The notes beneath the pieces are model-generated. The model was given only the letters and a program-made list of their open reading frames with translations. It was not told the DNA's origin and made no database searches. A DNA stretch of 29,893 nt from a virus: the UHGV virus genome UHGV-0172517. One strand, 5' to 3'. The position numbers and the translations under genes are program-made. Shown in pieces: positions 1 to 21,972 of the stretch (its first letter is position 1; each line of letters starts with the position of its first letter).

Positions 1-155
1 AAGATCACTACGGAGTGCCCGTCAGAGTCATTCGTTGGGAGCCGGAAACACAACGAGTTATCTACCTCCGCGAAGGCTATGAGCATGAGTGCTTCAGCCC
101 GCTCGAACAGTTTCGTCGTAAATTCAGGGAAATAGAGGTCGGTCATGAGCACTAA
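1..155 (+). CDS. 3' end of an upstream CDS (partial, start outside window); function unknown
   Basis: Frame 3 reads through to a TAA at about 153-155 with a plausible globular C-terminal peptide (…[44 protein letters not shown]) and overlaps the next start by ~11 nt, a coupling-type overlap. Frame 1 is an alternative ending near 135. Confidence 0.3.
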
Positions 156-1086
156 ATTAACCGGCTATGTATGGGATGGTTGCGCTGCGTCAGGCATGAA
201 ATTATCCAGCGTGGCAATTATGGCCCGCCTGGCTGATTTCAGTAATGACGAAGGTGTGTGCTGGCCATCAATTGAAACCATTGCCCGTCAGATTGGCGCG
301 GGGATGAGTACCGTCAGAACGGCTATCGCACGGCTGGAAGCAGAAGGCTGGTTAACGCGTAAGGCGCGTCGCCAAGGTAACCGCAATGCGTCGAATGTTT
401 ATCAGCTTAACGTTGCGAAGCTTCAGGCAGCGGCATTTTCTCAACTGTCAGATTCTGACCCGTCAAAATCTGACGCATCAAAATCTGACCCGTCAAAATT
501 TGATGCGTCGAAATCTGGCAAAAAAGCGGTTTTTCACCCGTCAGAATCTGGCGGGGATCCGTCAGTAAAATCAAAACATGATCCGTCAGATAAAAAAACT
601 TCTCGTCCGGACGCTTCGCAACCGGACACGCAGACGGCTGAACAGGAGTTTTTAACTCGCCATCCTGATGCGGTTGTATTCAGCCCTAAAAAGCGCCAGT
701 GGGGAACGCAGGATGATTTGACCTGCGCACAGTGGCTCTGGAAAAAAATCATCGCCCTGTACGAGCAAGCCGCCGAATGTGACGGCGAGGTGGTTCGTCC
801 CAAAGAACCGAACTGGACAGCCTGGGCAAACGAAATTCGCCTGATGTGTGTGCAGGATGGTCGTACTCATAAACAAATCTGCGAGATGTACAGCCGCGTC
901 AGCCGCGATCCGTTCTGGTGCCGTAACGTGCTCAGCCCGTCGAAGCTGCGGGAAAAATGGGATGAGCTTTCCCTGCGCTTATCGCCGTCCGTAAGCACGT
1001 ACACCGAAAAACGCGAAGACCCGTACTTCAAATCCAGTTACGACAACGTGGACTACAGCCAGATCCCGGCAGGATTCAGGGGGTGA
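145..1086 (+). CDS. O: Lambda O-like replication initiator (distinct N-terminal DNA-binding domain, repeat linker, O-type C-terminal domain)
   Basis: 313 aa ORF with SD-like GAGG upstream. C-terminal segment WANEIRLMCVQDGRTHKQICEMYSRVSRDPFWCRNVLSPSKLREKWDEL closely resembles the lambda O C-terminal domain as I recall it (WANDIRLMRERDGRNHRDMCVLFRWACQDNFWSGNVLSPAKLRDKWTQL). The central SDPSKSDASKSDPSKFDAS linker is encoded by iteron-like DNA repeats. Confidence 0.8.
   Translation: MSTKLTGYVWDGCAASGMKLSSVAIMARLADFSNDEGVCWPSIETIARQIGAGMSTVRTAIARLEAEGWLTRKARRQGNRNASNVYQLNVAKLQAAAFSQLSDSDPSKSDASKSDPSKFDASKSGKKAVFHPSESGGDPSVKSKHDPSDKKTSRPDASQPDTQTAEQEFLTRHPDAVVFSPKKRQWGTQDDLTCAQWLWKKIIALYEQAAECDGEVVRPKEPNWTAWANEIRLMCVQDGRTHKQICEMYSRVSRDPFWCRNVLSPSKLREKWDELSLRLSPSVSTYTEKREDPYFKSSYDNVDYSQIPAGFRG
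447..600. repeat. Candidate replication origin: iteron array inside the O-like gene followed by an A/T-rich tract
   Basis: Seen directly: ~15-bp direct repeats tctgacccgtcaaaa / tctgacgcatcaaaa / tctgacccgtcaaaa / tttgatgcgtcgaaa, each with internal dyad TGAC..GTCA, then aaaaaagcggttttt and further CCGTCAG repeats with A-runs. Architecture parallels ori-lambda, which lies within gene O. Confidence 0.6.
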
Positions 1087-1088
1087 TC

Positions 1089-1577
1089 ATGAGTCTGTTA
1101 AATGACGTTCAGAAATTCATTGAAGCCCATCCGGGGTGTACTTCCGGAGACATTGCGGATGCTTTTGCAGGTTACTCACGGCAGCGCGTTCTGCAGTCAG
1201 CAAGCAAGTTACGTCAGAGTGGGCGTGTGGCTCACCGTTGTGAAGGAGATACACGCAGACATTTCCCGCGCCTGACTGAGAGAGCGCAGGAACCGGAACC
1301 ACAACCAGTTCGTGAAACCAGACCTGTGCGCAATTTCTATGTCGGCACTAACGATCCCCGGGTGATTTTGTGCCTGACCCGCCAGGCGGAAGAACTGGAG
1401 TCCAGGGGCTTATACCGTCGTGCTGCAACGGTGTGGATGGCGGCATTCCGTGAAAGCCACTCCCAGCCAGAACGAAACAATTTTCTGGCGCGTCGTGAGC
1501 AGTGTTTACGGAAAAGCAGCAAGCGCGCTGTATCGGGTGATGAGTGGTATCTGTCAGGGAATTACGTGGGGGCTTAA
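1089..1577 (+). CDS. Putative regulator: Ren-like winged-helix N-terminus with PerC-family-like C-terminal motif
   Basis: ORF track gives 1083..1577 from GTG; ATG at 1089 with AGGGGG upstream is the more likely start. C-terminal LESRGLYRRAATVWMAAF…RREQCL matches the PerC/Pch signature (LE.GLWRRAA..W … CL) as I recall it; N-terminus patterns like lambda Ren. Occupies the position after O where lambda has P and ren. Confidence 0.5.
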   Translation: MSLLNDVQKFIEAHPGCTSGDIADAFAGYSRQRVLQSASKLRQSGRVAHRCEGDTRRHFPRLTERAQEPEPQPVRETRPVRNFYVGTNDPRVILCLTRQAEELESRGLYRRAATVWMAAFRESHSQPERNNFLARREQCLRKSSKRAVSGDEWYLSGNYVGA

Positions 1578-2230
1578 TGAGTAATAAATATTGCCAGACG
1601 CTGGTGGAACTGCGGAACAAACCAGCCCATGAACTGAAGGAAGTGGGTGATCAGTGGCGCACGCCGGACAACATTTTCTGGGGAATTAACACCCTGTTTG
1701 GCCCGTTTGTTCTGGATCTGTTCACTGACGGTGATAACGCCAAATGTGCTGCGTATTACACGGCGGAAGACAACGCGCTGGCGCATGACTGGTCAGAACG
1801 TCTTGCGGAGCTTAAAGGGGCTGCCTTTGGTAATCCCCCATACAGCCGCGCCAGTCAGCATGAGGGGCAATACATCACCGGCATGCGTTACATCATGAAA
1901 CATGCCAGTGCCATGCGTGATAAGGGTGGGCGCTATGTTTTCCTGATCAAAGCTGCCACCAGCGAAGTGTGGTGGCCGGAAGATGCAGATCATATTGCTT
2001 TTATTCGCGGGCGTATTGGTTTTGAACTGCCTGCCTGGTTTATCCCGAAGGATGAGAAGCAGGTGCCGACAGGCGCTTTCTTCGCTGGTGCTATTGCTGT
2101 TTTCGACAAGACCTGGAAGGGACCGGCAATTAGCTACATCGGGCGCGATGAACTTGAGGCATGTGGTGAGGCGTTTCTGGCGCAGGTTCGCCAGCAGGCG
2201 GAAAAACTGGTCAGGGAGATGGCGGCATGA
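1577..2230 (+). CDS. Phage N6-adenine DNA methyltransferase (Dam-like, orphan)
   Basis: NPPY catalytic motif (AAFGNPPYSR) typical of N6-adenine MTases. ATG at 1577 overlaps the upstream stop (TAATG); the ORF track's upstream Met at 1544 is probably not the start. Confidence 0.85.
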   Translation: MSNKYCQTLVELRNKPAHELKEVGDQWRTPDNIFWGINTLFGPFVLDLFTDGDNAKCAAYYTAEDNALAHDWSERLAELKGAAFGNPPYSRASQHEGQYITGMRYIMKHASAMRDKGGRYVFLIKAATSEVWWPEDADHIAFIRGRIGFELPAWFIPKDEKQVPTGAFFAGAIAVFDKTWKGPAISYIGRDELEACGEAFLAQVRQQAEKLVREMAA

Positions 2231-2553
2231 CGACGTTAACTCAATGCCAGCAGCAGGTGCTGGATATGCTGATTTCTTATCAGAAAGAACGTGGCTTCCC
2301 GCCAACCAATCAGGAGGTGGCAACCATGCTGGGATACCGTTCGGTGAATGCAGCGGTGGAGCATCTTCGCGCACTGGAGAAAAAAGGCGTCATCACGATA
2401 AAGCGTGGCGTGGCCCGGGGGATAACGCTTCATACCGCGGTGAAGGACGACGACAGCGAGGCGGTCGGGATTATCCGCGCACTGCTTGCCGGTGAGGAAA
2501 ACGCAAGGCTGCGTGCAACCCACTGGTTACATGAGAGGGACCTGAAAGTATGA
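2227..2553 (+). CDS. LexA-like winged-helix DNA-binding protein (LexA N-terminal domain only, no S24 peptidase domain)
   Basis: 108 aa; QQVLDMLISYQKERGFPPTNQEVATMLGYRSVNAAVEHLRALEKKGVITI resembles the LexA N-terminal DNA-binding domain ([50 protein letters not shown], from memory). ATGA start/stop overlap with both neighbours. Confidence 0.75.
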   Translation: MTTLTQCQQQVLDMLISYQKERGFPPTNQEVATMLGYRSVNAAVEHLRALEKKGVITIKRGVARGITLHTAVKDDDSEAVGIIRALLAGEENARLRATHWLHERDLKV

Positions 2554-2939
2554 AGCTGATCCTGCCTTTTCCGCCCAGCGTGAACACGTACTGGAGACAC
2601 CCCAACAAAGGGGCGTTTGCTGGTAAGAGCCTGATAAGCGCGGCGGGGCGAAAATTCCAGAGCGCGGCGTGCGCAGCAATAGTTGAGCAGTTACGTCGTC
2701 TGCCGAAACCAACGTCGGCACCTGCTTCAGTGGAGATCGTGTTATTTCCTCCGGATAACCGGATCCGCGATCTGGACAACTATAACAAGGCGCTGTTTGA
2801 CGCCCTGACCCACGCGGGTGTGTGGGAAGACGACAGTCAGGTGAAAAGAATGCTGGTGGAGTGGGGACCGGTTATCCCGGAAGGGAAGGTCGAGATCACT
2901 ATCAGTAAGTACGAGAAAACGGCGGGTGCAGCCGCCTGA
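2550..2939 (+). CDS. rusA: RusA-family Holliday junction resolvase
   Basis: 129 aa; N-terminal LPFPPSVNTYWRH and the DLDNYNKALFDALT acidic motif are typical of RusA; size matches (~120-130 aa). Start overlaps upstream stop. Confidence 0.85.
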   Translation: MKLILPFPPSVNTYWRHPNKGAFAGKSLISAAGRKFQSAACAAIVEQLRRLPKPTSAPASVEIVLFPPDNRIRDLDNYNKALFDALTHAGVWEDDSQVKRMLVEWGPVIPEGKVEITISKYEKTAGAAA

Positions 2940-2958
2940 TCAAGAGGAGAAACGAAGT

Positions 2959-3768
2959 ATGAATAATCTGATGGTCATTGATGGTATTGAAGTTCGTCGT
3001 GATGCTTATGGGCGTTACAGCCTGAACGATCTGCATCGCGCAGCAGTAGCATCTGGTGCAAATGCCAGAACCAAGGAGCCGGGGAAGTTTCTTTCCAGCC
3101 AACAAACTGTTGAGCTTGTTCATGAATTGACCAACACCCAGAATTTGGGTGTTGACCCGGTGAGTGTGATTCATGGGGGAAATGAACGGGGAACTTATGT
3201 CTGCAAGGAACTGGTGTATGCCTATGCAATGTGGATCAGCCCGTCATTCCATCTGAAGGTGATCCGTACTTTCGATATGGTAACCAGCGCACCGGAAAAA
3301 TTATCCGGACAGGCTGCTGACAAGATGCAGGCTGGTGTGATTCTGCTGGACTTTATGCGCCGGGAGTTAAACCTGTCTAACTCATCTGTGCTTGGGGCCT
3401 GTCAGAAACTCCAGGAGGCTGTTGGCTTACCGAATCTGGCACCGCGCTATGCCATTGATGCTCCTGCTGATGCACACGATGGCTCAAGTCGCCCGACACT
3501 GTCACTGAGTGCACTGCTGAAACAGTATGGTATCCGCCTGACGGCTAATCAGGCATATCACCAGATGGTGAAGCTGGGGATCGTCGAGCAGCGCGAACGA
3601 TACAGCCGTACCGCGATTAACAACATCAAAAAATTCTGGTCGCTGACAGCGAAAGGCTGCATGTTCGGCAAGAACATCACCAGTCCCGCAAATCCGCGCG
3701 AGACGCAGCCGCATTTCTTCGAATCCCGATTCCCTGAGCTGTTAAAGCTGCTCGATACCGTTCATTGA
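2959..3768 (+). CDS. KilA-N domain protein (Roi/antirepressor-like)
   Basis: ATG at 2959 preceded by AAGAGGAGA SD; the ORF track's upstream Met at 2926 is unlikely. N-terminal ~100 aa (MVIDGIEVRRDAYGRYSLNDLHRAA…GGNERGTYVCKELVYAYAMWISPSFHLKVIRTFD) fits a KilA-N DNA-binding domain. Confidence 0.8.
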   Translation: MNNLMVIDGIEVRRDAYGRYSLNDLHRAAVASGANARTKEPGKFLSSQQTVELVHELTNTQNLGVDPVSVIHGGNERGTYVCKELVYAYAMWISPSFHLKVIRTFDMVTSAPEKLSGQAADKMQAGVILLDFMRRELNLSNSSVLGACQKLQEAVGLPNLAPRYAIDAPADAHDGSSRPTLSLSALLKQYGIRLTANQAYHQMVKLGIVEQRERYSRTAINNIKKFWSLTAKGCMFGKNITSPANPRETQPHFFESRFPELLKLLDTVH

Positions 3769-3769
3769 G

Positions 3770-4765
3770 GTGACCGTGAGAGCACTACTGACCCCTGAAA
3801 TTGCCCCGCGTATGGGGATCGTATTGTTCAGACCAGGTTCAGAGCTGATGCCCCTGTTTATGCAGGGGCGTGTCCTGCTGGAGCCTGAGCCGGAACGTTA
3901 TTCATCTTTCGCCAGTGGTGCCGTTCCGGCGGCATCACAACCGCTGGCGGATGATCCTGCCGTTCGGGCCGTGTTCCGCAATGAGGCAGTGATCCGTCGT
4001 GCTGGTGGAGTGGAATGTCTTGAAAGCTGGTTACTTCGTGAAAAAGGCTGCCAGTGGCCTCATTCCGACTGGCACAGCGAGAACATGACCACAATGCGAC
4101 ACGCTCCGGGTGCAATCCGTCTGTGCTGGCACTGCGATAACCAGCTGCGCGATCAGTTCACGGAACGGCTGGAATCAATGGCAACGGATAACTGTGCCCG
4201 CTGGGTGTTATCTGTTGTGCGCCGTGATCTCGGTTTTGATGATAGTCACGTTGTGACAATGCCGGAACTGTGCTGGTGGCTGGTTCGTAATGACCTGGCT
4301 GATGCCTTACCGGAAAGTGCAGCCCGTAAGGCACTGAGATTACCGAAGCCTGTTGTGCCGTCTGTCACCCGGGAGAGTGACCTTGTTCCTTCGGTTCCTG
4401 CCACCAGCATTATCCAGGATAAAGCGAAAAAGGTGCTGGCGCTGAAAGTGGATCCAGAGTCGCCGGAGTCTTTTATGTTACGCCCAAAACGTCGCCGCTG
4501 GGTTAATGAAAAGTACACGCGCTGGGTTAAGACACAGCCGTGTGCATGTTGTGGAAAGCCTGCTGATGATCCCCATCACCTGATAGGCCACGGTCAGGGT
4601 GGAATGGGTACAAAAGCGCATGACCTCTTTGTGTTGCCTTTGTGCAGAAAGCATCACGACGAGCTGCATGCGGATACCGTGGCATTTGAAGAGATGTATG
4701 GTTCCCAGCTGGAGCTGATATTTCGTTTTATCGATCGTGCGCTGGCAATAGGCGTACTGGCGTAA
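3770..4765 (+). CDS. DUF968 (YdfU-like) protein with C-terminal HNH-like Cys/His motif
   Basis: 331 aa ORF; C-terminus CACCGKPADDPHHLIGHGQGGMGTKAHDLFVLPLCRKHHDELH carries an HNH-like metal-binding pattern; resembles the Qin prophage YdfU family, which precedes Q. Start codon (GTG 3770 versus internal ATGs) is uncertain. Confidence 0.7.
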   Translation: MTVRALLTPEIAPRMGIVLFRPGSELMPLFMQGRVLLEPEPERYSSFASGAVPAASQPLADDPAVRAVFRNEAVIRRAGGVECLESWLLREKGCQWPHSDWHSENMTTMRHAPGAIRLCWHCDNQLRDQFTERLESMATDNCARWVLSVVRRDLGFDDSHVVTMPELCWWLVRNDLADALPESAARKALRLPKPVVPSVTRESDLVPSVPATSIIQDKAKKVLALKVDPESPESFMLRPKRRRWVNEKYTRWVKTQPCACCGKPADDPHHLIGHGQGGMGTKAHDLFVLPLCRKHHDELHADTVAFEEMYGSQLELIFRFIDRALAIGVLA

Positions 4766-4778
4766 GTGGAGAACGAGC

Positions 4779-5531
4779 ATGAACCTTGAAGCCTTACCAA
4801 AATATTACTCCCCAAAATCTCCAAAATTGAGCGATGACGCACCGGCGACAGGCTCAGGTGGTTTAACGATTACGGATGTGATGGCTGCGCAGGGGATGGT
4901 GCAGTCGAAAGCACCGCTTGGGTTTGCCTTATTCCTGGCAAAAGTTGGTGTTCAGGATCCTCAATTTGCGATTGAAGGTCTGCTCAATTACGCGATGGCA
5001 CTGGATAACCCGACATTGAACAAATTGAGTGAAGAAACCCGGTTACAGATCATCCCTTACCTTGTGAATTTTGCCTTTGCTGATTATTCCAGGTCTGCGG
5101 CAAGTAAGGCTCGCTGTGAGCATTGTGCTGGTACTGGATTTCATAATGTATTGCGCGAAGTGGTGAAACACTCCAGAAGCGGGGAATCTGTTATCAAGGA
5201 AGAGTGGGTGAAGGAACTATGTCAGCATTGTCATGGTAAGGGAGAAGTCAGCACAGCGTGCAGAGGGTGTAAGGGTAAAGGTATTGTCCTGGATGAAAAA
5301 AGGACCCGGCTTCATGGCACGCCTGTTTATAAGATTTGTGGGCGTTGCAATGGAAATCGGTTTAGCCGTTTACCAACCACACTGGCGCGGCATCATGTCC
5401 AGAAGCTGGTACCAGACCTGACGGATTATCAGTGGTACAAAGGATATGCAGATGTCATTGATAAACTGGTGACAAAGTGCTGGCAGGAAGAAGCATATGC
5501 TGAGGCGCAATTAAGAAAAGTGACGAGATAA
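4779..5531 (+). CDS. Q: Late-gene antiterminator Q (lambda Q family, QuuQ-like, with extra Zn-binding CxxC motifs)
   Basis: 250 aa; GGAGA SD 7 nt upstream. N-terminus YSPKSPKLSDD…TDVMAAQGM resembles lambda Q (HSPKSPMMSD…TDVMAAMGM, from memory); multiple CxxC pairs. Sits immediately upstream of the lysis cassette. Confidence 0.8.
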   Translation: MNLEALPKYYSPKSPKLSDDAPATGSGGLTITDVMAAQGMVQSKAPLGFALFLAKVGVQDPQFAIEGLLNYAMALDNPTLNKLSEETRLQIIPYLVNFAFADYSRSAASKARCEHCAGTGFHNVLREVVKHSRSGESVIKEEWVKELCQHCHGKGEVSTACRGCKGKGIVLDEKRTRLHGTPVYKICGRCNGNRFSRLPTTLARHHVQKLVPDLTDYQWYKGYADVIDKLVTKCWQEEAYAEAQLRKVTR

Positions 5532-5559
5532 ATGATTTTCGCCGAAGATGGCGACATGA

Positions 5560-5600
5560 TTCTTGCATTTTTCAAAAAATTTGGTTAGGATTCTCCTAAC
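5560..5600 (+). promoter_or_regulatory. Candidate late promoter (PR'-like) and qut region
   Basis: TTGCAT (-35), 17-bp spacer, TAGGAT (-10) about 30 nt downstream of the Q stop, overlapping a small dyad ttaggattctcctaa. Position mirrors lambda PR'. Confidence 0.35.
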
Positions 5601-5635
5601 GATGGGCTTTGTGTGTCTACCGTTGATAATCTTCA

Positions 5636-5662
5636 AGAAACCGCCACCGAGCGGTTTTTTAT
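5636..5662 (+). terminator. Hairpin plus T-run (tR'-like candidate)
   Basis: gaaaccgc-caccgag-cggtttttt: a 7-bp stem followed by six T residues, ~40-60 nt downstream of the candidate late promoter. Confidence 0.4.
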
Positions 5663-5819
5663 TGATGTCAATTGTGTTTTTAAGGCTCTCCTTCCTTAAA
5701 GTGTGTTGTACAAAAAACTGGCAGCCAGCTACGCTCATTTTGAAAAAGTGACACCCTTCAATGTTTCTTTTGAATGGAATTGCTACCCATAAATCTCTAT
5801 CAAAAACAGGAGAGCATAT

Positions 5820-6062
5820 ATGGTGGATCGTTGTTCTGTTTGTGAGCAGTCATTAAGTTATTCACGAGAAGTTGAACAAGATGGCGTTGAATATAAATCT
5901 TGCCCAAAATGTTCTGCTGATGCCGGAGTGCACGTTTTTTATAAAACAATAGACTTTGGTTATAGGGATATGGGAGACGGAAGGCATATCGTTCAGTCAT
6001 GGTGTCCGGCTTGTCGTTCTGGTGAAAAACCTTCTATACCACCAGCATTTAAATGTTGTTAA
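5820..6062 (+). CDS. Small Cys-rich putative zinc-ribbon protein (moron; function unknown)
   Basis: 80 aa ORF with strong SD AGGAGAG 5 nt before the ATG; CxxC pairs at residues 5/8, 28/31, 62/65 and a terminal CC; AT-rich relative to flanks; followed by its own terminator. Confidence 0.55.
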   Translation: MVDRCSVCEQSLSYSREVEQDGVEYKSCPKCSADAGVHVFYKTIDFGYRDMGDGRHIVQSWCPACRSGEKPSIPPAFKCC

Positions 6063-6079
6063 CTCAATGAATTATAAAA

Positions 6080-6108
6080 AGAGGCTGCCTGTGGGCGGCC
6101 TTTTTTGT
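6080..6108 (+). terminator. Rho-independent terminator downstream of the small Cys-rich ORF
   Basis: aggctgcc-tgtg-ggcggcct, an 8-bp stem with one G-U pair, followed by tttttt. Confidence 0.6.
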
Positions 6109-6193
6109 GCACTACGCAACTTTTGCGACTCAGCGCTATAACCAGCTTCTTTCCCTTCACTCGTTGCACTTCCGATAACCGGAGGTGGGAATT

Positions 6194-6535
6194 ATGAAAA
6201 TGCATAACGATCCTCATTCCTGGTCTGACTTACTTGAATTGTTACAGAGCTGGTGGCGTGGAGACACACCGCTGGGCGCAGTAATTATGTCGATCGTTAT
6301 GGCTGGCTTGCGCATTGCCTATTTTGGCGGTGGTGGTGGCTGGAAGCGAAAAACGCTCGAGATTTTGCTCTGCGGCGCTCTGACGCTGACTTTTGCATCC
6401 GCTCTTGAGTATGTCGGATGGCCTAAATCGCTTTCTGTTGCCATTGGTGGTGGTGTTGGGTTGATCGGTGTCGATGCTATTCGTGGGGCTGCAATGAGAG
6501 TAATCGGTAACAAGTTCGGTGGCTCTAAGGAGTAA
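6194..6535 (+). CDS. Class I (lambda S-type, three-TMD) holin with Met-Lys-Met dual-start motif
   Basis: ORF track starts at GTG 6185; ATG at 6194 (GGAGG SD ~9 nt upstream) then Lys and a second ATG at 6200. Three hydrophobic segments and a charged C-terminus; topology and the MKM motif parallel lambda S107/S105. Immediately upstream of R. Confidence 0.8.
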   Translation: MKMHNDPHSWSDLLELLQSWWRGDTPLGAVIMSIVMAGLRIAYFGGGGGWKRKTLEILLCGALTLTFASALEYVGWPKSLSVAIGGGVGLIGVDAIRGAAMRVIGNKFGGSKE

Positions 6536-7970: not shown

Positions 7971-8381
7971 TTAGTGCGGAAATATTTGTGTAGTGTTCTG
8001 AATGTTCTCAGTAAAGAGTAATGAATTATCAAAGGTATAGTAATACCTTTTGTTTTCGTGGATATTTGTAATCCATCTGAAAACCCCTGCTGTAGCAAGA
8101 TTTTTCCTGTATTCGTAAAATGATAACTCTCCTGATTTGAATCCTTTTAAGGTGGCTTCTATAAGGCATTTATTTTTTGAAAATCTTACATTTACAACCT
8201 TACCCTGTCCTTTTATTAAAACCGTATTATCGTTTTCAAGAACAAGATGAATATTCTCTGTAGCTAAATAGTAAATGTAATGTGAGACATTGTGACGTTT
8301 TAGTTCAGAATAAAACCAGTGATAGTTTAAATTATTTCGCACTTTATCGAATATTTGTTTAAAAATGGCAACCTGAGCCAT
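7971..8381 (-). CDS. DUF1398 / YbcV-like moron protein (function unknown)
   Basis: ORF track 7971..8396; the second ATG at 8381 has a better SD (GGAAGG) than the first. AT-rich gene on the opposite strand to all phage genes; position between Rz and terminase matches ybcV in DLP12-type prophages. Confidence 0.6.
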
Positions 8382-8437
8382 TGTGGTACCTTCCATGTGA
8401 TATGAGGGGCGTAGTCTGCACGATTATCTAAATTGCT

Positions 8438-19418: not shown

Positions 19419-21972
19419 ACCGGTAGGCGATCTGGTCGTTGATTTGAGTCTGGATGCGGCCAGATTTGACGAGCAGATGGCCAGAGTCAGGCGTCATTTT
19501 TCCGGTACGGAAAGTGATGCGAAAAAAACAGCGGCAGTCGTTGAACAGTCGCTGAGCCGACAGGCGCTGGCTGCACAGAAAGCGGGGATTTCCGTCGGGC
19601 AGTATAAAGCTGCCATGCGTATGCTGCCTGCGCAGTTCACTGACGTGGCCACGCAGCTTGCAGGCGGGCAAAGTCCGTGGCTGATCCTGCTGCAACAGGG
19701 GGGGCAGGTGAAGGACTCCTTCGGCGGGATGATCCCCATGTTCAGGGGGCTTGCCGGTGCGATCCCCCTGCCGATGGTGGGGGCCACCTCGCTGGCGGTG
19801 GCGACCGGTGCGCTGGCGTATGCCTGGTATCAGGGCAACTCAACCCTGTCCGATTTCAACAAAACGCTGGTCCTTTCCGGTCATCAGTCGGGTCTGACGG
19901 CAGATCGTATGCTGGTCCTGTCCAGAGCCGGGCAGGCGGCAGGGCTGACGTTTAACCAGACCAGCGAGTCACTCAGCGCACTGGTTAAGGCGGGGGTAAG
20001 CGGTGAGGCTCAGATTGCGTCCATCAGCCAGAGTGTGGCGCGTTTCTCCTCTGCATCCGGCGTGGAGGTGGACAAGGTCGCTGAAGCCTTCGGGAAGCTG
20101 ACCACAGACCCGACGTCGGGGCTGACGGCGATGGCACGCCAGTTCCATAACGTGACGGCGGAGCAGATTGCGTATGTTGCTCAGTTGCAGCGTTCCGGCG
20201 ATGAAGCCGGGGCATTGCAGGCGGCGAACGAGGCCGCAACGAAAGGGTTTGATGACCAGACCCGCCGCCTGAAAGAGAACATGGGCACGCTGGAGACCTG
20301 GGCAGACAGGACTGCGCGGGCATTCAAATCCATGTGGGATGCGGTGCTGGATATTGGTCGTCCTGATACCGCGCAGGAGATGCTGATTAAGGCAGAGGCT
20401 GCGTTTAAGAAAGCAGACGACATCTGGAATCTGCGCAAGGATGATTATTTTGTTAACGATGAAGCGCGGGCGCGTTACTGGGATGATCGTGAAAAGGCCC
20501 GTCTTGCGCTTGAAGCCGCCCGAAAGAAGGCTGAGCAGCAGACTCAACAGGACAAAAATGCGCAGCAGCAGAGCGATACCGAAGCGTCACGGCTGAAATA
20601 TACCGAAGAGGCGCAGAAGGCTTACGAACGGCTGCAGACGCCGCTGGAGAAATATACCGCCCGTCAGGAAGAACTGAACAAGGCACTGAAAGACGGGAAA
20701 ATCCTGCAGGCAGATTACAACACGCTGATGGCGGCGGCGAAAAAGGATTATGAAGCGACGCTGAAAAAGCCGAAACAGTCCGGCGTGAAAGTGTCTGCGG
20801 GCGATCGTCAGGAAGACAGTGCTCATGCTGCCCTGCTGACGCTTCAGGCAGAACTCCGGACGCTGGAGAAGCATGCCGGAGCGAATGAGAAAATCAGCCA
20901 GCAGCGCCGGGATTTGTGGAAGGCAGAAAGTCAGTTCGCGGTACTGGAGGAGGCGGCACAACGTCGCCAGCTGTCCGCACAGGAGAAATCCCTGCTGGCG
21001 CATAAAGATGAGACGCTGGAGTACAAACGCCAGCTGGCTGCACTTGGCGACAAGGTTACGTATCAGGAGCGCCTGAACGCGCTGGCGCAGCAGGCGGATA
21101 AATTCGCACAGCAGCAACGGGCAAAACGGGCCGCCATTGATGCGAAAAGCCGGGGGCTGACTGACCGGCAGGCAGAACGGGAAGCCACGGAACAGCGCCT
21201 GAAGGAACAGTATGGCGATAATCCGCTGGCGCTGAATAACGTCATGTCAGAGCAGAAAAAGACCTGGGCGGCTGAAGACCAGCTTCGCGGGAGCTGGATG
21301 GCAGGCCTGAAGTCCGGCTGGAGTGAGTGGGAAGAGAGCGCCACGGACAGTATGTCGCAGGTAAAAAGTGCAGCCACGCAGACCTTTGATGGTATTGCAC
21401 AGAATATGGCGGCGATGCTGACCGGCAGTGAGCAGAACTGGCGCAGCTTCACCCGTTCCGTGCTGTCCATGATGACAGAAATTCTGCTTAAGCAGGCAAT
21501 GGTGGGGATTGTCGGGAGTATCGGCAGCGCCATTGGCGGGGCTGTTGGTGGCGGCGCATCCGCGTCAGGCGGTACAGCCATTCAGGCCGCTGCGGCGAAA
21601 TTCCATTTTGCAACCGGAGGATTTACGGGAACCGGCGGCAAATATGAGCCAGCGGGGATTGTTCACCGTGGTGAGTTTGTCTTCACGAAGGAGGCAACCA
21701 GCCGGATTGGCGTGGGGAATCTTTACCGGCTGATGCGCGGCTATGCCACCGGCGGTTATGTCGGTACACCGGGCAGCATGGCAGACAGCCGGTCGCAGGC
21801 GTCCGGGACGTTTGAGCAGAATAACCATGTGGTGATTAACAACGACGGCACGAACGGGCAGATAGGTCCGGCTGCTCTGAAGGCGGTGTATGACATGGCC
21901 CGCAAGGGTGCCCGTGATGAAATTCAGACACAGATGCGTGATGGTGGTCTGTTCTCCGGAGGTGGACGATGA
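19411..21972 (+). CDS. H: Tail tape measure protein H
   Basis: 853 aa, same length as lambda gpH; long coiled-coil-rich sequence with a Gly-rich C-terminal region. Confidence 0.96.
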   Translation: MAEPVGDLVVDLSLDAARFDEQMARVRRHFSGTESDAKKTAAVVEQSLSRQALAAQKAGISVGQYKAAMRMLPAQFTDVATQLAGGQSPWLILLQQGGQVKDSFGGMIPMFRGLAGAIPLPMVGATSLAVATGALAYAWYQGNSTLSDFNKTLVLSGHQSGLTADRMLVLSRAGQAAGLTFNQTSESLSALVKAGVSGEAQIASISQSVARFSSASGVEVDKVAEAFGKLTTDPTSGLTAMARQFHNVTAEQIAYVAQLQRSGDEAGALQAANEAATKGFDDQTRRLKENMGTLETWADRTARAFKSMWDAVLDIGRPDTAQEMLIKAEAAFKKADDIWNLRKDDYFVNDEARARYWDDREKARLALEAARKKAEQQTQQDKNAQQQSDTEASRLKYTEEAQKAYERLQTPLEKYTARQEELNKALKDGKILQADYNTLMAAAKKDYEATLKKPKQSGVKVSAGDRQEDSAHAALLTLQAELRTLEKHAGANEKISQQRRDLWKAESQFAVLEEAAQRRQLSAQEKSLLAHKDETLEYKRQLAALGDKVTYQERLNALAQQADKFAQQQRAKRAAIDAKSRGLTDRQAEREATEQRLKEQYGDNPLALNNVMSEQKKTWAAEDQLRGSWMAGLKSGWSEWEESATDSMSQVKSAATQTFDGIAQNMAAMLTGSEQNWRSFTRSVLSMMTEILLKQAMVGIVGSIGSAIGGAVGGGASASGGTAIQAAAAKFHFATGGFTGTGGKYEPAGIVHRGEFVFTKEATSRIGVGNLYRLMRGYATGGYVGTPGSMADSRSQASGTFEQNNHVVINNDGTNGQIGPAALKAVYDMARKGARDEIQTQMRDGGLFSGGGR

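Follow-up and report, generated by a model that had tools for sequence, protein, structure and literature searches.

The 29,893-nucleotide (nt) viral DNA stretch analysed here (UHGV virus genome UHGV-0172517, hereafter the window) carries, at positions 2227–2553, a gene for a 108-amino-acid (aa) LexA-domain protein, for which we use our own label LexS, between genes for a Dam-family DNA methyltransferase and a RusA-family Holliday-junction resolvase. LexS, itself uncharacterised, is a very common enterobacterial representative of the truncated LexA homologues encoded by phages, with a helical hairpin added at its C-terminus; LexS and RusA belong to a conserved syntenic backbone, while the methyltransferase is exchangeable DNA-modification cargo in a fixed slot. 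We tentatively read LexS as a RecA*-proof repressor acting at SOS-box-like CTGT palindromes. Should LexS prove to bind SOS boxes uncleavably, it would amount to a widespread viral check on the SOS response, with bearing on prophage competition, the induction of Shiga-toxin phages and antibiotic-induced mutagenesis; otherwise it simply joins the other early regulators of phages. The practical yield is a corrected domain description and evidence for a methyltransferase that is exchangeable cargo.

The proposal of the initial annotation that the middle protein of this trio derives from LexA was upheld by profile, sequence and structure comparisons. LexS matched the whole of PF01726 (LexA_DNA_bind; E=3e-19, profile positions 1–65 of 65), and phmmer against PDB sequences returned LexA proteins only (E~1e-15). 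Its AlphaFold2 model (AF2; mean predicted local distance difference test score, pLDDT, of 80) showed a winged helix composed of helices at residues 6–22, 28–35 and 40–52 and strands at 56–58 and 66–68, for which the top Foldseek match in the PDB was the E. coli LexA-DNA complex 3jso (root-mean-square deviation, rmsd, 1.0 Å over 68 residues; 50% identity), with non-LexA winged-helix proteins orders of magnitude weaker. E. coli LexA contacts DNA through Ser39, Asn41, Ala42, Glu44 and Glu45 (PMC3091678), and the corresponding residues of LexS are S39, N41, A42, V44 and E45, that is, four of the five are kept; R64-G65-I66 of the wing do not vary within the LexS family.

The same annotation had described the protein as the LexA DNA-binding domain and nothing more, lacking both autocleavage and dimerisation domains, and of this only the absence of an autocleavage domain stands. 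LexS stops at residue 108, no S24 peptidase/dimerisation domain with a Ser-Lys dyad is present in it, and its match to TIGR00498 (70.6 bits against a cut-off of 110.95) covered profile positions 1–91 only. What had been overlooked is that residues ~75–103 form a conserved helical hairpin, likely a dimerisation module, modelled as helices at 75–87 and 93–103 (pLDDT of the block ~87; linker 71–75 below 50). Homologues of LexS were sought exhaustively among 1.8 billion representatives, and full-length relatives at 38–53% identity keep the C-terminal two-helix pattern (L86, L87, A93, A97 and L101); this makes the hairpin a hallmark of the LexS family (phrog_362). It is amphipathic, is kept in homologues down to ~40% identity and, judging from the model, probably mediates dimerisation.

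Other architectures were also encountered. A 158-aa protein with a LexA DNA-binding domain (L084:4001–4477, also in L085–L091; PF01726, E=2e-19), whose gene shares an ATGA overlap with RusA, has a different C-terminal part of ~90 aa (phrog_29443/24920), and proteins of 140–220 aa carry a tandem pair of LexA DNA-binding domains but lack S24 (P0130, P0131, P0153, P0156, P0159 and P0162). Alternative C-termini or tandem domains in proteins devoid of S24 fit a need of the lone domain for the pairing of two copies. Separately, an LLAGE segment of LexS, which a HMMER alignment had placed on the LexA cleavage site (VAAGE, Ala84-Gly85), was considered as a mimic or decoy of that site and rejected, because its Gly is not conserved and the segment is predicted to be helical: the Gly is replaced by Asn in Citrobacter-type homologues (LLANEE), and the motif is absent elsewhere (VERE, SGGD and others).

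The region comes from the delayed-early rightward (nin-like) operon of a lambdoid E. coli prophage of the SfV/mEp460/cdtI/Stx2c type, with the block lying between the replication genes and the Q antiterminator; the window starts within the replication gene, so that the immunity region falls outside it. Megablast gave 97–98% DNA identity to mEp460, SfII and the Stx2c- and Stx2a-converting phages, as well as to numerous induced E. coli prophages, and a tblastn search of 50,697 phage records with LexS as query (E≤1e-5) found SfV, SfIV and cdtI at 96–97% protein identity. Gene order is constant, running from the replication gene through the YfdN/PerC-like gene, Dam, the LexA-domain protein, RusA, KilA-N and DUF968/HNH to the Q antiterminator. 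A match was detected in 2673 of the 5426 complete E. coli genomes surveyed (1661 of them with at least 80% coverage); about half of these genomes thus match the block and about a third hold the whole trio, and Stx2-, cdt- and serotype-converting phages bear it too. The module is well known, having been repeatedly sequenced and annotated, and its Dam-family methyltransferase and RusA are ordinary family members. The middle gene is 'orf42: unknown' in the SfV record and appears in later records as 'LexA DNA binding domain protein', 'LexA repressor', 'SOS-response repressor and protease LexA' or 'transcriptional repressor'; none of the public names has an experimental basis, and to call the product a protease is an error. 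Among viral contigs we gathered 236 loci with LexS, in five groups whose identity to LexS of the window falls from 99% to 44%; the first alignment-based scan of these contigs returned near-identical loci only, and the diversity came from separate scans for distant homologues.

In the mechanism that we propose, LexS would be produced only after induction or infection, on derepression of the early operon, and would pair through its C-terminal hairpin. The pair would bind CTGT-type palindromes, both SOS-box-like sites of the host and the dinI-like and late methylase regions of the phage. Because it has neither a cleavage site nor a protease domain, LexS would act as a repressor immune to RecA*, and would dampen or re-set LexA-controlled transcription during lytic growth. 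The methyltransferase, whose characterised relatives target GATC, would methylate replicating phage DNA and let it escape restriction, and RusA would resolve branched replication or recombination intermediates ahead of packaging. The N-terminal fragment of LexA retains some SOS-box binding and repression and has to be removed by ClpXP (PMC10584840). Uncleavable binding of SOS boxes by LexS is a plausible prediction.

Candidate sites were found in relatives of the window. The search for CTGT-N8-ACAG palindromes put forward in the initial annotation gave window counts no higher than chance: 11 sites with at most one mismatch against 10 expected, and one exact site against 0.37 expected. The exact site, at 21463 within the tape-measure gene, is consistent with chance and was rejected as an SOS box. 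Complete relatives are enriched in the exact palindrome, with five copies in mEp460 (0.6 expected; none of 200 shuffles reached five), four in cdtI and two in SfV. Among these copies, two tandem boxes precede a dinI-like gene in mEp460 and cdtI (Table 1), one lies within a rha-like gene, and one, the near-consensus SOS box TACTGTAAAAATAAACAGTG, sits 10 nt into a late-region DNA methylase gene of ~350 aa, in the interval between Q and holin, in all three phages. None of the dinI-like, rha-like and late methylase genes occurs in the window. The boxes of the relatives could be targets of host LexA and perhaps also of LexS, and nothing separates the two. Phages of the mEp460/cdtI type carry both an SOS-controlled RecA modulator (dinI-like) and a LexA-domain protein.

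Several observations weigh against binding of SOS boxes, and some of them speak for another explanation, namely that LexS is a phage-specific transcription factor which has drifted away from the SOS box to activate or repress one or a few phage promoters; we regard this as rather unlikely, though a serious contender. Its precedent is gp6 of the Bacillus tectivirus GIL01, the sole characterised truncated LexA homologue of a phage, which binds the non-LexA palindrome GaCACAnnTGTGaC and activates transcription from the late promoter P3 (PMC6182141). No LexS group retains Glu44 of LexA, which has given way to V, A, T or F, and positions 40, 42–43, 45 and 46 of the recognition helix vary among groups, with E45 changed to D, G or S and H46 to M. 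The host SOS box is equal across these enterobacterial hosts, and the variation by phage lineage at positions 40 and 42–46 hence points to lineage-specific targets. LexS also evolves more quickly than the enzymes encoded beside it, a frequent trait of regulatory proteins: between the same phages its median identity is 44–50%, against 64–75% for RusA, 77–81% for Dam and 58–65% for DUF968, although it diverges less than the PerC-like protein (25–30%). The window has no SOS-like site above chance, and our literature search found no paper characterising LexS or any enterobacterial phage LexA-domain protein. However, no candidate site was found for the drifted-factor explanation; the 4 kb on either side of LexS are nearly all coding and free of promoter-like sites; late transcription in these phages is already served by the Q antiterminator; and identity to E. 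coli LexA is high, with four of the five contact residues kept. A repressor of SOS-box-like palindromes that resists RecA* is the reading to which we provisionally hold.

The methyltransferase upstream of LexS matched PF05869 (Dam; 156 bits, cut-off 28.1; E=1e-45) and TIGR01712 ('phage N-6-adenine-methyltransferase'; 255.6 bits, cut-off 97.05), and residues 86–89 (NPPY) correspond to the (D/N)PPY catalytic motif. It is an orphan, as first described, since its neighbours are the PerC-like gene and LexS, no nuclease adjoins it, and the next genes are RusA, KilA-N, DUF968 and Q. GATC is mildly rarer in the window than expected (92 observed, 114–142 expected), a difference that carries no information on the target site. 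Membership of the trio in an anti-phage defence system was considered and rejected: PADLOC matched Dam to methyltransferase models only (MTase_II/oMTase) and gave no meaningful match for LexS or RusA. RefSeq re-annotations and phrog_33262 call the product of 1577–2230 a 'phosphoadenosine phosphosulfate reductase'; it matches just positions 283–492 of that 495-position profile, and the name probably derives from fused proteins and is misleading here.

Across the loci, the gene directly 5' of LexS is a methyltransferase drawn from five unrelated Pfam families, namely PF05869 Dam, PF01555 N6_N4, PF00145 C5, PF05063 MT-A70 (where a 75-aa gene stands after the methyltransferase) and PF02086 D12. 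In 20 of the 80 near-identical loci and in several group D loci it is absent altogether, so that the PerC-like or replication gene immediately precedes LexS. With its families swapped or missing in this way, the methyltransferase is cargo, and the trio is therefore no obligate unit. In some loci a TGT/DpdA-like gene, a further DNA-modification gene, lies between LexS and RusA; in L121 (4327–5082) it encodes a 251-aa protein that matched phrog_887 ('queuine tRNA-ribosyltransferase', E=7e-96) and had no Pfam match.

This recurrent company raises the question of whether LexS is tied to the adjoining DNA-modification cargo, either controlling the methyltransferase in the manner of a C protein or suppressing the SOS response that foreign methylation provokes. 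Modification genes on both sides of LexS would suit such a tie, as would the finding that no other identified kind of cargo occupies these positions, bar a few small genes of unknown function. However, the methyltransferase can be missing where LexS is retained, the methyltransferases have unrelated specificities, and LexS lies 3' of the methyltransferase within one operon, an unusual layout for a C protein; of all the explanations weighed here we find this one the hardest to credit.

All three plus-strand open reading frames (ORFs) and their family matches were confirmed where the initial annotation had placed them, whereas of the two kinds of join it named (ATGA and TAATG) only ATGA lies within the trio. 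Both internal junctions read ATGA, at 2227–2230 (Dam stop, LexS start) and 2550–2553 (LexS stop, RusA start); the TAATG at 1575–1579 belongs to the stop of the PerC-like gene and the start of the methyltransferase, outside the trio. Because the replication and PerC-like genes overlap too, the chain of overlaps is longer than the trio and covers at least four or five genes. Purine-rich, Shine-Dalgarno-like stretches (GGAG-, GGGA- and GGGGG-type) lie 5–13 nt 5' of each start. No plus-strand promoter-like site was found in positions 1–6300 and no plus-strand terminator-like site 5' of position 4194, hence none in or just upstream of the trio, and the block therefore sits within a single long transcription unit read rightward. 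Of the 26 same-strand junctions of the window, 8 show a 1- or 4-nt overlap, those of lysis and tail genes among them, and stop/start overlaps are the normal packing of this operon. Translational coupling of the trio, as predicted from the overlaps, is plausible, yet generic for such a phage.

The earlier view of the trio as a coupled functional unit is thus not supported by the comparison, given a methyltransferase slot that is swappable or empty in relatives and 4-nt overlaps that are generic. An obligate co-expressed module, whose coupling would serve a joint function, is improbable in our judgement: both ATGA overlaps are kept in 57 of the 80 near-identical loci and 21 of the 55 group C loci, as such a module would have it, but exchange or loss of the methyltransferase, the frequency of overlaps at unrelated junctions and the extension of the chain into the PerC-like and replication genes all speak against it.

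Table 1. Positions of the features discussed (window coordinates unless a locus is named).
Feature	Position	Strand	Evidence or remark
Replication gene	145–1086		Overlaps longest PerC-like ORF, GTGA at 1083–1086
YfdN/PerC-like gene	1083–1577	+	PF06069 PerC, E=1e-9; phrog_1324; yfdN label in E. coli genomes
Orphan Dam-family N6-adenine DNA methyltransferase, 217 aa	1577–2230	+	PF05869, TIGR01712, NPPY
LexS, 108 aa, without S24	2227–2553	+	PF01726; phrog_362 full length; phmmer to LexA structures
LexS winged helix-turn-helix, aa 1–68	2227–2430	+	AF2; Foldseek 3jso; LexA alignment
LexS recognition helix SVNAAVEHLRALE, aa 40–52	2344–2382	+	
LexS C-terminal two-helix hairpin, aa 75–103	2449–2535	+	AF2; conserved residues; putative dimerisation/interaction module
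RusA-family Holliday-junction resolvase, 129 aa	2550–2939	+	PF05866, E=6e-15; E. coli RusA alignment
Slot methyltransferases adjoining LexS start codon	L129:2329–3420; L117:2001–3308; L084:1983–4004; L150:3091–3780; L231:3108–4001		
Tandem exact CTGT-N8-ACAG boxes 5' of dinI-like gene	L149:23257–23300 (mEp460); L242:26722–26765 (cdtI)		
Near-consensus SOS box TACTGTAAAAATAAACAGTG	L149:41023–41038 (mEp460); L241:34172–34187 (SfV); L242:44085–44100 (cdtI)		

The resolvase of the window scored 56.4 bits on PF05866 (cut-off 22.8) and, aligned with E. coli RusA (1q8r), keeps RDLDN and DD, which match the catalytic aspartates. RusA lies directly 3' of LexS in 209 of the 236 loci, usually with the identical 4-nt overlap and even where LexS identity has fallen to 44%, and the 158-aa LexA-domain protein, with its other C-terminus, is likewise coupled to RusA. 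LexS could accordingly assist RusA as an accessory or architectural DNA-binding partner during recombination or the processing of junctions, a role for which λ NinH, a mimic of Fis encoded beside the Rap resolvase gene, would be a precedent (PMC7166090). We think this improbable as well. The whole backbone (replication gene, PerC-like gene, LexS, RusA, DUF968 and Q) is syntenic and the adjacency may simply be inherited, and additional genes stand between LexS and RusA in 16 of the 55 group C and 5 of the 11 group E loci. The RusA proteins of E. coli DLP12 and phage 82 work without such a partner. A role as RusA accessory and a link to the modification cargo are both less likely than the SOS-box and gp6-like explanations.

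Taken further, the SOS-box reading would make LexS a widespread, RecA-proof stand-in for LexA which, once produced after induction and paired through its hairpin, re-occupies SOS boxes and mutes the host SOS regulon together with SOS-controlled rivals; this extended version is speculative and, on our estimate, unlikely. If it were true, the rivals silenced during phage replication would be other prophages, colicins and SOS-triggered toxins. LexS may also time the SOS-box genes of the phage itself (dinI-like, late methylase), and its constant siting beside exchangeable modification genes could reflect a need to mute the damage signalling that foreign modification elicits.

Some further features of the window lie outside the trio. 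Within the replication-protein gene, a 15-bp unit, TCTGACCCGTCAAAA, is repeated 4.3 times (454–517) and codes for a repetitive 'DPSKSDASKSD'; the repeats are iteron-like and probably mark the phage origin. A DUF1398 gene on the minus strand (7971–8396), in an island of 31.5% GC with the lysis genes on one side and the terminase on the other, resembles a moron insertion. Between Q and holin, the interval that holds other cargo in relatives, lies, in a stretch of ~40% GC, an 80-aa cysteine-rich ORF (5820–6062) with several CxxC pairs and no Pfam match. No tRNA or Rfam family was found across the window.

Compared with known systems, the methyltransferase and resolvase resemble other prophage enzymes. 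M.EcoVT2Dam of prophage VT2-Sa (cited in PMC6602927) is likewise a prophage-borne adenine methyltransferase without a restriction partner; the two are likened by type, and activity and specificity of the window copy are putative. E. coli RusA (DLP12 prophage; PDB 1q8r) belongs to the same family and has the catalytic acidic motifs in common with the window protein, whereas the latter reached 71.5 bits on the K-12-specific model NF007305 (cut-off 200) and is thus a family member, not the K-12 orthologue.

Among characterised proteins, GIL01 gp6 and λ NinH come nearest to LexS. The likeness of λ NinH to LexS is one of kind: both are small nin-region proteins that copy the DNA-binding part of a global host regulator and are encoded beside a resolvase gene. 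NinH, which mimics the host nucleoid protein Fis, dimerises and bends DNA (PMC7166090). Its Fis-like helix-turn-helix is non-homologous to the LexA winged helix of LexS, and both dimerisation and DNA bending have been demonstrated for NinH, while for LexS dimerisation is predicted from the model.

E. coli LexA's N-terminal DNA-binding domain (PDB 1lea, 3jso) has the same winged helix-turn-helix as LexS, which keeps Ser39, Asn41, Ala42, Glu45 and the RGI of the wing. Unlike E. coli LexA, LexS lacks an S24 protease/dimerisation domain as well as a conserved Ala-Gly cleavage site, another residue stands at the position of Glu44, and the linker and C-terminal domain have given way to a helical hairpin of 35–40 aa. 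GIL01 gp6 and LexS are alike in being phage-encoded LexA-domain proteins with no protease domain, expressed from early genes. The tblastn search described above found LexS in enterobacterial phages only, with no Bacillus phage or tectivirus among the matches, gp6 itself not having been aligned. The two proteins differ in that gp6 stops right after the wing whereas LexS has the extra hairpin, and in that LexS, unlike GIL01 gp6, is encoded in a nin-like operon of lambdoid type that includes a Q antiterminator.

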